Positions 22,881-25,149 are shown, counted from the stretch's first letter. The stretch is DNA of 27,391 nucleotides from an uncultured Solibacteraceae bacterium (GCA_964449665.1 CAYUZM010000001.1:1-27391), one strand, 5' to 3'. Notes: a model not told the origin generated them from the letters alone. Made by a program: numbers and translations.

Positions 22881-22909
22881 ATTATAGCGGATGGCGGGGG
22901 GGAAGGGAA
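22881..22909 (-). promoter_or_regulatory. Possible sigma-70 promoter for yceD-rpmF-plsX
   Basis: Perfect TATAAT on the minus strand (22886-22881) about 64 nt before the yceD start; only a weak -35 (TTCCCT) at 17 bp. Confidence 0.4.
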
Positions 22910-23015
22910 TTCGAAGGGTAGCGAAGAGTCGGCGTGACCCCAGCACGAGGGAAATTGGAGGCGATGAGATTGCGTTTCCGGCGCGGTGGGGGAGAGCCGT
23001 TGAGCCAATCATTCG

Positions 23016-24284
23016 TCAAGCTTGCTTAGGCCATTCAAAATGGTCGTCTCTATTAATCTGCGATTGCGCCTGGATGCCGATCAAGCGCCATGCCCCAGCT
23101 TCGTCTGACTTCCTCCTGGCGTCGCCGTAGATCGAAAGATAGCGTCTCAGTTCCGCGGCGATTTGTGAGTCGAGGTGCTCGAAACACTTCCCGTCGTTGC
23201 AGAATTTGTAATGCTTGCCCCAGCCCTGCATGATTCCATCCACACGCTTTAGTGTTTGGATCAGCGCGTTTTTCTTATCGACTTGTCCGCTGCGGTGGTG
23301 CGATCGAATCGCCATCTCGCTCTGCCTCAGCGTCGTCTTTATGCGAGCTAGCAGACGCCCCTGGGCCTGCCTGCTTGGACGGAGTAGCCCGCTAGCGAGT
23401 TCAATTCCAAGAAACTCGAACTTTTCAAATGTACTCCCTCTTTTTGTCTTCTCGTCAGAAACTGTCATCCCCAACTCACTGAGCATTCGCTTTGCTTTGG
23501 CAAAAGTATTCTCAGCAACTTCTTTGCTGGGGCCGAGAATGATGAAATCGTCGATGTATCGGATACAGCGAACATCAGAGCATTTATTGAGTTCTTGATC
23601 GAACTCATAGAGTGCCAAGTTGCCGATCAGGGGAGAGAGAGCGTTTCCCTGCGCGACACCAATATCCTCCAATGGGAACTTAGCCGCATCCTTTTTCAAT
23701 GCCGCCATATTGTGGAGCTCTACTGCAATTGCCTTCTCGAAAAGCGAACAGAATTCATCCTCGTTCGGCACGCTATCTACGACGACCTTAATGGCCGCCG
23801 ATTTCTTGAGACGCGTAAAGAACTCGGAGATGTCGGAACGGATTGCAAATTTTCCACCGTTGCCGATTGCATCGAGTACGGCCTTGATCGCCGCAGGTAC
23901 CGCAGTCGTAGCGGATTCACGCTTCTTTACACCGCCGAAACTATGTGGAGTGTCAACATACTTTGCGATAGCCGGGACGTCGACAAGAACATCATGGATC
24001 GCGCGCTGTACGATACGTGATTCGATCTTGGCCACTACGAGCGGGCGAAACCCAACCCTACCGCCTTTCGGGAGCTTTACGCCTCGGGCAGGTGGGAACT
24101 CAAATCGCCCCTTTTGAAGCCGCTCAATTAGCCTGCGGAGATTGGTGGTGAGATTCTTTTCAAACTCTTCAACCTCCTTGCGCGTGTCATCTGACTTTGA
24201 CACCCTCGCATTTCTGGAGATTGCGCGCCACGCGCTCTCAATAACCCTTCGGGATCGAACTTGTCGCGCTAGACTCTTCTTCAT
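23016..24284 (-). CDS. Stand-alone group II intron-like reverse transcriptase (G2L4-like), no endonuclease domain
   Basis: RT0-like N-terminus 'IESAWRAISRN', RT1/2 'GVKLPKGG...FRPLVVAKIESRIVQRAI', RT3 'SDISEFF', RT4 'GVAQGNALSPLIGNL', RT5 'RYIDDF', RT7 'FEFLG', thumb/X-like 'MQGWGKHY'; 422 aa; more AT-rich than the host genes. Confidence 0.9.
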   Translation of the reverse strand: MKKSLARQVRSRRVIESAWRAISRNARVSKSDDTRKEVEEFEKNLTTNLRRLIERLQKGRFEFPPARGVKLPKGGRVGFRPLVVAKIESRIVQRAIHDVLVDVPAIAKYVDTPHSFGGVKKRESATTAVPAAIKAVLDAIGNGGKFAIRSDISEFFTRLKKSAAIKVVVDSVPNEDEFCSLFEKAIAVELHNMAALKKDAAKFPLEDIGVAQGNALSPLIGNLALYEFDQELNKCSDVRCIRYIDDFIILGPSKEVAENTFAKAKRMLSELGMTVSDEKTKRGSTFEKFEFLGIELASGLLRPSRQAQGRLLARIKTTLRQSEMAIRSHHRSGQVDKKNALIQTLKRVDGIMQGWGKHYKFCNDGKCFEHLDSQIAAELRRYLSIYGDARRKSDEAGAWRLIGIQAQSQINRDDHFEWPKQA

Positions 24285-24327
24285 CTGTCCATTGGGTCTG
24301 TTGGTTCGCCTGACCCGTCCGACAGCA

Positions 24328-24455
24328 CACTCCTGAACCCAGCGACGTTACCGTGAGGCCCGGTTCGCTCAATCGAGACTTGCGCCTCGCCGCTGACTTG
24401 GGCCCGAAGCGCCCAGGTTGCCCTGATCGCCGAGACGCCCAATACAAGGGTCAGT
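24328..24455. repeat. 128-bp direct repeat, copy 1 (RT-proximal)
   Basis: cactcctgaaccc...aatacaagggtcagt is identical base for base to 24683..24810; it ends 43 bp before the RT start codon. Confidence 0.97.
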
Positions 24456-24682
24456 GCAACAGTCAGCTTGACGGCGCAAGCCCACTGTCGCCGCACCAAG
24501 CTGGCGCGTTTTTGCCGATAGCATACATCGCTCTAATCCCTCCTACTACTATTGTAGCTTTTTGGGTATGACCTGCAAGCGCTGCCGCCATCTCCCTTCG
24601 CCGCCCGGATTATTAAAGCTGCCAGCCGCCCAACAGTCACCATGAACGGTGCAGGTTGCGACTAGATTCATGCCGGACGCGT

Positions 24683-24810
24683 CACTCCTGAACCCAGCGA
24701 CGTTACCGTGAGGCCCGGTTCGCTCAATCGAGACTTGCGCCTCGCCGCTGACTTGGGCCCGAAGCGCCCAGGTTGCCCTGATCGCCGAGACGCCCAATAC
24801 AAGGGTCAGT
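24683..24810. repeat. 128-bp direct repeat, copy 2 (RT-distal)
   Basis: Identical to 24328..24455; offset 355 bp; 227-bp unique spacer at 24456..24682. Confidence 0.97.
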
Positions 24811-24900
24811 ACCACCAAATATACTACGGTTTGGATCTGAGGCGCAAGATATTGTACCGTCTATGCGGCCTAACAGACAGTGGCGCCTCAAGTGTGATGA

Positions 24901-25149
24901 TCATCGGTTGAAGTCAGGCGGTTCGCGCATCGGTCTTCGAGGGGGGATGTCGAGTTCGAGGCCGCCGAGAGGCTCAATTCGCCTCCTAATTGCTTCCGCG
25001 AGATTTTCGGTGACAGAAGGTTGGGTTGCGACCGCGATCGTCAAAATCTCACGTGCCTCTTCTTCCATCGAACGGCCATGGCGCGAAGCTTGTGCGCGCA
25101 GTCGCTCCTTGGTTCTCTCGTCGAGACGACGGATCGTGATGCTAGCCAT
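24901..25149 (-). CDS. FitA/StbC-like ribbon-helix-helix antitoxin (orphan)
   Basis: 'MASITIRRLDERTKERLRAQASRHGRSMEEEAREIL...LGGLELDIPPR...PPDF', typical of FitA-like antitoxins of PIN toxins. Confidence 0.85.
   Translation of the reverse strand: MASITIRRLDERTKERLRAQASRHGRSMEEEAREILTIAVATQPSVTENLAEAIRRRIEPLGGLELDIPPRRPMREPPDFNR

Follow-up and report, generated by a model that had tools for sequence, protein, structure and literature searches.

Paired repeats upstream of a G2L4 reverse transcriptase as four-way-junction modules of a predicted pseudoknotted leader RNA

The repeat pair and its reverse transcriptase

The window analyzed here, a 27,391-nt stretch of DNA from an uncultured Solibacteraceae bacterium (CAYUZM010000001.1:1–27391), belongs to an acidobacterial metagenome-assembled genome (MAG) from rock or soil. 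Its minus strand encodes a reverse transcriptase (RT) of 422 aa (positions 23016–24284), preceded on the same strand by 2 direct copies of a 128-nt module. We designate the distal copy LDR1 (24683–24810) and the proximal copy LDR2 (24328–24455), after the long direct repeats (LDRs) that have been described upstream of group II intron-like 4 (G2L4) RTs. The 3′ end of LDR2 lies 43 nt from the RT ATG. The copies are 355 nt apart from start to start, with a spacer of 227 nt, and LDR1, which covariance model R1 matches with 110.5 bits (E 3.7e-20), is 100% identical to LDR2. Our analysis makes it almost certain that the 128-nt repeat is one of the 2 LDRs of a G2L4 RT, that it is a four-way-junction RNA in the sense of the RT within a pseudoknotted leader of ~530 nt, and that its 2 copies are kept identical by concerted evolution.

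Searches of the 7.2-Mb assembly with BLAST and the covariance model recovered these 2 copies only, and Tandem Repeats Finder found no tandem repeats in the window; a tandem-repeat or CRISPR-like array was thus ruled out. No open reading frame (ORF) in the window ends inside either copy. The GC content of the RT island is 0.47–0.55 versus 0.60–0.65 in its flanks.

By far the best solved relative of the window RT is the "Group II intron-like 4 reverse transcriptase" of PDB entries 9d5x/9d4s, which matched over the full length (residues 5–403, E 6e-62); the best group II intron RT was 7uim (E 2e-16). Pfam assigned RVT_1 and a weak group II maturase domain, and the best NCBIfam model was the group II intron RT/maturase model TIGR04416 with 163 bits, under its cut-off of 300. 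The active site in the translation reads IRYIDDFIILG (YIDD, not YADD), and I244, D245, and D246 are invariant across 34 homologues. The YIDD motif is a hallmark of G2L4 RTs (PMC4244168). On the match to the solved G2L4 RT and the YIDD motif taken together, the window RT is a G2L4 member. It carries the motif QGNALSP and not the motif of diversity-generating retroelements (DGRs).

LDRs were reported, with function unknown, upstream of the G2L4 RT of Pseudomonas aeruginosa; they were termed "palindromic" DNA repeats, 2 of ~140 bp with a ~240-bp spacer, less than 1 kb upstream of the RT, and accompanied ~70% of the G2L4 loci (Park et al. 2022, bioRxiv 10.1101/2022.03.14.484287). The window pair, with 2 copies of 128 nt at 100% identity and a 227-nt spacer, fits this description. 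In the same study (i) TGIRT-seq of P. aeruginosa covered the LDRs, on the RT-coding strand, at a 20-fold higher depth; (ii) co-expression of the LDRs modulated RT-dependent survival after H2O2 or phleomycin, whereas the protein level was unchanged; and (iii) the LDR loci lay near recombinases, in a low-GC island (Park et al. 2022, 10.1101/2022.03.14.484287). The 2 systems are alike in RT family, in having two near-identical repeats (128–140 nt) of which the proximal one directly precedes the RT and which a spacer of 227–240 nt separates, in the low-GC island, and in spacer motifs and the B–B′ pairing described below; the window may also share the raised RNA depth over the repeats. They differ in that the window host is acidobacterial, while the passages of the 2022 survey used for this comparison name mainly proteobacteria and not this phylum, and in that the P. 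aeruginosa sequence is too diverged from the window LDR for model R1. Two later G2L4 papers leave the repeats unmentioned, and in the literature searched we found no further paper on LDRs and no account of their junction fold, pseudoknot, promoters, or concerted evolution. The 128-nt repeat therefore belongs to an element already reported, the LDR, and its RNA architecture is new relative to the literature searched.

A gene for a FitA-like ribbon-helix-helix antitoxin (24901–25149, minus strand; Pfam PF22513, E 1.2e-17) lies beyond LDR1 and ends 54 nt upstream of the −35 element of the promoter-like site in front of LDR1. No PIN toxin gene follows it; the RT module may thus have replaced or disrupted the toxin.

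Fold and expression of the leader RNA

Forty-one non-identical homologous units were aligned with MAFFT, and a consensus fold was obtained with RNAalifold and extended to a completed model. According to this comparative model, the LDR unit is a four-way junction with a closing stem and 3 arms that are usually GNRA-capped. In the window, all on the minus strand, (i) the closing stem P1 pairs residues 24448–24454 with 24333–24340 (CUGACCC/GGGUUCAG); (ii) the long arm P2 (24393–24447) has the apex CAGG-GCAA-CCUG at 24414–24425; (iii) stem P3 (24374–24389) reads CGAGGC-GCAA-GUCUCG and, in Alphaproteobacteria, is 12 nt longer with tandem G-A; and (iv) arm P4 (24341–24369) is formed by GAGCGA/UCGCUG and ends in the apex CC-UCAC-GG at 24351–24358. 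The P4 apex has the general form CC-loop-GG; its loop is UCAC in the window, and the consensus and 16 of the 41 units have GAAA. The invariant bases of this arm (GG...CC GAAA GG..CC) suggest a contact surface.

The four-way model was compared with versions of itself in which the pairing partners had been slid. In the MAFFT alignment, 83.5% of the cells of the model were paired versus 37%–44% with partners slid, the covariation score was 0.344 versus 0.10–0.12, and 185 cells had changed on both sides versus 53–92. None of 500 shuffles reached the observed pairing and covariation values. A model-fitted alignment of 108 covariance-model hits agreed with this picture, and 37 of the 41 units adopted the same abstract shape, [[][][]], when folded singly.

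By contrast, the fold energy of the window unit was not significant against shuffled sequences (z = −1.56 for the sense and −1.06 for the antisense strand), so the question is settled by comparison of homologues, and comparative data alone carry the case. The count of GNRA loops did stand out: the sense unit has 3 such loops on stems of 3 bp or more, versus a mean of 0.26 in 2,000 dinucleotide shuffles (P = 0.001), and the antisense unit has none.

The original prediction, made from the window alone, had read the repeat as a strand-specific folded RNA with 4 canonical tetraloops, 3 of them capping GNRA hairpins. All 4 motif sequences are present on the minus strand (24414–24425, 24375–24388, 24345–24354, and 24404–24409), and covariation across the 41 units bore out 2 of the GNRA hairpins, CAGG-GCAA-CCUG and GAGGC-GCAA-GUCUC, as well as the proposed closure of the unit by its ends. 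The third hairpin, ACG-GUAA-CGU, gave way to the conserved apex CC-UCAC-GG at that place. The supposed cUUCGg loop is a CUUCGG without a flanking stem and is not conserved; that is to say, it is no tetraloop, and 2 of the 4 motifs fall outside the conserved fold. The prediction that homologues would covary and that the element is an RNA rather than a DNA binding site held on both counts.

Several measures agree on the strand. The 108 covariance-model hits are, without exception, on the RT strand. The minimum free energy of the sense strand is lower than that of the antisense strand in 41 of 41 units (means −58.4 versus −43.8 kcal/mol), and the alignment fold has an energy of −62.8 in sense and −40.0 in antisense. 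Over all predicted helices, 843 G-U cells stand against 180 A-C cells (4.7:1), a ratio somewhat favored by predicting the helices on the sense strand. Because covariation, strand asymmetry, and an RNA-library contig over the proximal repeat only (described below) point the same way, as do the published TGIRT-seq data, the conclusion that the LDR is a folded RNA of the RT-sense strand, and not a DNA binding site, is well supported.

Known RNA classes did not account for the unit. ARAGORN found no tRNA or tmRNA-like gene, which ruled out that identity. In Rfam 15, including all group II intron models and self-cleaving ribozymes, nothing matched the leader at E ≤ 10 (22900–24950) and nothing in the window reached a gathering score; 9 homologous loci gave no match at E ≤ 1. 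The sole Hammerhead_II match lies inside the RT gene (E 5.2) and is noise. A self-cleaving ribozyme in each repeat, as in a retrozyme-like circular RNA, was rejected because no ribozyme family matches the leader and no back-joints were seen.

The spacer and the RT leader are conserved along with the LDRs, and 2 long-range helices connect them. Directly 3′ of LDR1 lies box A, of 12–13 nt (24671–24683, minus strand; GACGCGUCCGGCA), which pairs with box A′ (24312–24327, minus strand; UGCUGUCGGACGGGUC; GUCGGACGGGUC in helix A–A′) 3′ of LDR2. Helix A–A′ has 12 pairs with 89% of cells paired (19%–46% when slid), 27 double changes, and 74 G-U versus 7 A-C cells. A hairpin in the spacer (24622–24665, minus strand; CUAGUCGC...GCGGCUGG) presents segment B (24630–24637, minus strand; ACUGUUGG, family consensus CCUGUUGG). 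Segment B is complementary to B′ (24297–24304, minus strand; CCAACAGA; CCAACAGG in helix B–B′), which is held in the RT leader hairpin GGGUC...GACCC (24294–24316, minus strand) and whose end lies 12 nt upstream of the start codon of the RT. Helix B–B′ is 97% paired (22%–52% in slid controls), and at least 12 loci show compensatory changes, among them CGAUCUGG/CCAGAUCG (L029), CCUGCUGG/CCAGCAGG, and CCUAUCAG/CUGAUAGG. Since the segments follow one another in the order A, B, A′, B′, the 2 helices form a pseudoknot. Thus, as judged from covariation, both LDRs, the spacer, and the RT leader are one pseudoknotted leader RNA of ~530 nt.

Helix B–B′ is nearly pure Watson-Crick, with 2 G-U in 328 cells over 41 two-LDR loci; the other helices have ~15% G-U. 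This might reflect a pairing that must also work with DNA. A further, variable hairpin just 5′ of LDR2 (24460–24487, minus strand) has 73% of its cells paired and 65 double changes.

Each LDR has a conserved promoter-like site upstream of it, on the minus strand. By motif match, promoter-like site P1 (24818–24847) consists of a −35 element TTGCGC (24842–24847), an 18-nt spacer, and a −10 element TATATT (24818–24823). The −10 element ends 7 nt before LDR1, which would thus be transcribed from its first bases. A pattern TTGACn-N16–18-TAnnnT ends 4–8 nt before the module in ~25 of 41 two-LDR loci and in 7 of the 9 single-LDR loci tested, with a mean score of 7.4–8.0 of 12 versus 4.07 in random windows. 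Promoter-like site P2, in the spacer (24551–24579), reads CTTGCAGG ... CAAAAAGC TACAAT, with the family consensus CTTGCC-N17-TAGGCT, and is conserved from Acidobacteriota to Pseudomonas (there TTGACG-N17-TAGCAT). A U-rich tract 3′ of the spacer hairpin (24608–24619, minus strand; GCUUUAAUAAUC, consensus GcauUuaUuU), a motif also found in P. aeruginosa, may be a terminator or processing site of an LDR1 transcript.

Between P2 and LDR2, a Shine-Dalgarno (SD)-like GGAGGG (24538–24543) precedes a 21-codon upstream ORF (uORF; 24463–24528), both on the minus strand; the uORF overlaps an almost invariant CAAAAACG and a hairpin motif (24492–24514). In 41 loci and the P. aeruginosa locus L076, an SD-like GGAGG occupies the same position, followed after 6–10 nt by AUG or GUG and an ORF of 9–40 codons. 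The first 13 residues are conserved as MRxTCKNVPxRHG, over the nearly invariant GCAAAAACGUGCC and the hairpin. As the K and N codons show zero synonymous variation and the overlapping hairpin covaries (94% paired), coding and RNA motif are indistinguishable here, and a motif in the RNA or DNA may account for the conservation no less well than a micropeptide. On the plus strand, the invariant A5 and the hairpin motif (24489–24514) make a textbook intrinsic terminator, a hairpin followed by UUUUUGCC, which was flagged by a scan tool and could stop antisense transcription into the leader.

A single, unstranded soil metatranscriptome run (X8) yielded a 164-nt contig (24304–24467) with a depth of 12.8 and 0 mismatches. 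It comprises LDR2 plus 12 nt on the 5′ side and 24 nt on the 3′ side through A′, and stops at the first base of B′. It is the only contig of this run on a 2.2-kb stretch; the RT gene and the spacer are uncovered, whereas DNA runs cover the whole region evenly. The contig appears to fit a stable, LDR2-centered small RNA of ~160 nt.

Distribution and concerted evolution of the repeats

We fetched 69 loci with RT homologues (Acidobacteriota, Alphaproteobacteria, and others), of which 57, including the window, had enough upstream sequence. An exact or near-exact LDR pair of its own was present in 45 of the 57 loci, with copies of 105–135 nt and a spacing of 336–382 nt, and the proximal LDR usually ends 39–100 nt from the start of the RT. 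A single LDR copy is present in 10 loci. The identity of the LDR core averages 99.2% within a locus and 54% between loci, and this contrast indicates concerted evolution. In pairs of close loci, nearly all differences are common to both copies (L017 versus L018: 22 concerted, 0 single-copy). The rare differences between the copies of a locus are mostly in loops (GAAA versus GUAA in P3, GAAA versus GAUU in P4), and they are mixed (T>C, G>A, A>T) and not adenine-specific. The tufA/tufB genes, rRNA operons, and retroviral long terminal repeat (LTR)/R repeats are likewise identical within a genome while orthologues diverge. The LDRs differ from these in being only 128 nt long and 355 nt apart, with sharp edges that coincide with the RNA module; either RecA conversion or RT copying is possible.

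Nine of the single-LDR loci (L012, L014, L023, L027, L041, L042, L045, L053, and L055; LDR at about 2800–2957) read promoter-like site P1–LDR–A′–B′–RT. The spacer is absent, and there is no A or B partner within 3 kb. This layout is what a deletion by recombination between LDR1 and LDR2 would leave. In the tenth (L061), the spacer is kept, and LDR1 was lost to 5′ truncation.

The megaplasmid G2L4 locus of P. aeruginosa (L076; NZ_CP131792.1) has an RT of 33.7% identity and 137-nt LDRs 376 nt apart. Its unit shape is [[][][]], its B–B′ helix has 12 bp, and its spacer has in common with the window family the motifs AGUAGCUUUAUUUU, a promoter-like block CAAAAAGGUAGC, and CAUGCAAAAACGUGCCAA with its hairpin. 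These common motifs tie the window leader by homology to the published LDR region. In this locus, a 64-aa "hypothetical protein" annotated by RefSeq (WP_124169534.1; 2232–2426) covers the end of the spacer and most of the proximal LDR, and is probably a miscall over structured RNA; a recombinase gene and a TIR-domain gene lie just downstream of the RT.

Distant RT relatives of 23%–26% identity occur in Bacteroidota genomes (L067 and L069–L071) and in a MAG labelled Janthinobacterium (L068). These 5 loci have their own exact pairs of 107–122 nt at the same spacing (about 2450–2930; L068 883–1311), unrelated in sequence to the window LDR, and complementary boxes after the repeats. In L067–L069, the A–A′ and B–B′ logic is present with unrelated sequences. 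Model R1, with filters off, found no match to the Pseudomonas or Bacteroidota LDRs; the kinship of these LDRs is suggested by architecture and, for Pseudomonas, also by the spacer motifs.

The module is sporadic, occurring in 2 of 151 sampled genomes of the order, and no conserved neighbour or effector gene accompanies the RT across the loci. The repeat period (LDR plus spacer) is divisible by 3 in 24 of 42 two-LDR loci, against an expectation of one third; since the loci are related, this may be inheritance and not constraint. An acidobacterial locus (L007) has, upstream of its LDR region, a second and unrelated direct-repeat pair (1831–2300; 85 and 51 nt, 292 nt apart).

Possible functions of the leader RNA

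A group II intron RT binds domain IVa (DIVa), a structured RNA just upstream of its own start codon that overlaps its ribosome-binding site. The window resembles the group II intron ribonucleoprotein (RNP) in its related RT lineage and in the structured RNA immediately 5′ of the RT start. By contrast, it has no ribozyme, no domain V or VI (DV/DVI), no Rfam intron match, and no splicing context, and it contains 2 identical modules instead of 1 stem-loop. By analogy with this RNP, autoregulation is plausible.

We put at about even the chance that the LDR RNA is a dedicated partner or regulator of the homodimeric RT. The idea is suggested by 3 observations: no other gene is conserved beside the RT, bases of arm P4 are invariant, and the G2L4 RT forms a symmetric homodimer whose interface is conserved (10.1101/2025.01.14.632616). 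In such an arrangement, each strand of the antiparallel A–A′ helix would have an identical module at its 5′ end, so that the 2 modules would be related by the dyad of the helix in a pseudo-two-fold manner. Each LDR module would bind one protomer of the symmetric RT homodimer and would hold or tune the enzyme. Helix B–B′, beside the ribosome-binding region, would couple translation of the RT to RNA and RT occupancy, like group II RTs at DIVa. LDR2 appears to accumulate as a stable small RNA of ~160 nt. With one module per protomer, both the presence of 2 copies and the modulation of survival at an unchanged protein level would be explained.

Several points weigh against this proposal and against parts of the leader model. 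A contact between the RT and LDR RNA is purely our inference, and the published activity of G2L4 RTs is DNA repair on DNA substrates (microhomology-mediated end joining, MMEJ, as well as snap-back synthesis), for which no RNA is needed. The 10 one-LDR loci keep an intact RT ORF, so loss of the second module is tolerated at least for some time. Exact identity of the copies is unexplained by a partner model, since 2 binding sites need no identical sequences; it is possible that ordinary gene conversion, with selection keeping A and A′ different, or an RT-dependent process maintains it. Promoter-like sites P1 and P2 are motif matches that draw on conservation across loci, and a stricter sigma-70 scan of 24200–24960 lists neither. 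The 164-nt contig, as noted, comes from one unstranded run.

The leader could instead serve cDNA synthesis as a template or primer RNA, as in retrons or defense-associated reverse transcriptases (DRTs), with A–A′ positioning the RT on the enclosed spacer and LDR2 as a1/a2 do. We regard this as rather unlikely, and we give the same low weight to its extension, in which the identical LDRs let nascent cDNA switch copies, as in strand transfer at the retroviral R region, and recopying of cDNA explains their identity. Like a retron msr–msd, the RNA immediately precedes, in the same orientation, an RT of the active type, beside which no other gene is conserved, and a long-range inverted repeat (a1/a2 in retrons, A–A′ here) encloses structured RNA; exact copy identity is also maintained across phyla, and the almost purely Watson-Crick B–B′ helix speaks for this reading too. 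However, the window RT is not retron-type and no msDNA is known, a duplicated module is absent from retrons, and the enclosed RNA (~350 nt) is far larger. The retron model St85 scored 43 bits against a cut-off of 235, and no Rfam retron or msr model matched, so a retron was rejected and A–A′ is a resemblance only. Upstream noncoding RNAs (ncRNAs) do serve as templates for other bacterial RTs, namely those of DRT2, DRT9, and DRT10 (UG2, UG28, and UG17), in which the RT has an adjacent dedicated structured ncRNA of 130–300 nt; DRT10 combines a UG17 RT with a SLATT effector, upstream of which lies an ncRNA of ~137 nt (PMC12632851). The window family is G2L4 and not UG, with no SLATT or other effector gene, no short template loop, and no Neo-type endless frame, and the known G2L4 phenotype is DNA repair. 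A PADLOC match to RT_UG17 was secondary (115 bits, below 132 bits for the generic RT), and there is no conserved neighbour gene, so DRT10/UG17 was rejected. A DRT2-like endless ORF on a rolling-circle copy of LDR plus spacer was rejected as well, because a never-ending frame on such a circle is limited to 11 of 42 loci, the window not among them. Further against a template, retron and DRT family models score far under their cut-offs, no cDNA has been reported for G2L4 RTs, metagenome DNA shows no clear rise in depth over the LDR (6.7 in one bin versus ~5 beside it) and no joints, and single-LDR loci persist with an intact RT. A purely cis-acting leader, that is, a riboregulator that senses a non-RT signal and controls RT expression by attenuation or translation control through B–B′ and the uORF, with repeats homogenized by RecA gene conversion, is in our estimation unlikely. 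The position of B′ 12 nt upstream of the start codon, its partner B in a hairpin followed by a U-rich tract, the conserved SD and uORF, and the 2 tandem promoter-like sites would all suit such a device, and the deletion derivatives show that LDR–LDR recombination occurs. On the other hand, the P. aeruginosa LDRs changed RT-dependent survival with the RT protein level unchanged, LDR RNA appears to accumulate far above mRNA, as expected of a stable RNA with its own role, and ~530 nt with 2 four-way junctions is very large for a leader.

The 2 remaining explanations concern what the repeat is or derives from. The original prediction suggested a domesticated group II intron fragment, an origin that would be compatible with other functions and that we hold to be improbable. 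Group II RTs do bind structured intron RNA upstream of their own start (DIVa), and GNRA loops are frequent in introns, but such loops occur too widely among structured RNAs to indicate an origin. The models Intron_gpII and group-II-D1D4 found nothing at E ≤ 10 in the window or at E ≤ 1 in 9 homologues, which leaves the suggestion without support from Rfam, and no DV/DVI-like element is present. The LDRs also diverge so fast that R1 misses the Pseudomonas and Bacteroidota copies; intron homology would therefore not be recoverable by sequence. An element acting at the DNA level, such as recombination or attachment sites of a mobile island, a template repeat/variable repeat (TR/VR) pair of a DGR, or protein-binding iterons, was already disfavored and is highly improbable. 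The lower GC content of the RT island, the patchy distribution (2 of 151 genomes of the order), and the recombinases near published loci and adjoining the RT in L076 are what a mobile island might show. The compensatory changes and the 4.7:1 excess of G-U over A-C are, by contrast, strand-specific signatures of RNA, and both repeats lie on one side of the RT and do not flank the island. A DGR TR/VR pair was rejected because the few copy differences are not A-specific, there is no target gene with the repeat, the RT has QGNALSP and not the DGR motif, and no ORF ends in the copies.

Of these functions, we prefer that of a dedicated RNA partner or regulator of the RT. The leader architecture is conserved from Acidobacteriota and Alphaproteobacteria to Pseudomonas, and a sequence-unrelated form stands beside distant RTs in Bacteroidota-type loci. 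G2L4 is the best-studied case of a bacterial RT domesticated for a cellular job, namely double-strand-break repair, and has so far been treated as a protein acting alone. As a tentative and more far-reaching proposal, G2L4 RTs may be ribonucleoproteins, in which 2 identical junction RNAs on a pseudo-symmetric scaffold would dock the homodimer and gate repair, or would serve as a natural template, with the RT copying one module onto the other. The LDRs were noted in 2022 and then dropped from the literature; the RNA model now offers helices that can be mutated (stems P1–P4, A–A′, and B–B′) and makes binding, regulation, or copying of LDR RNA by the RT directly testable. The LDR leader RNA is a candidate for a new Rfam family.

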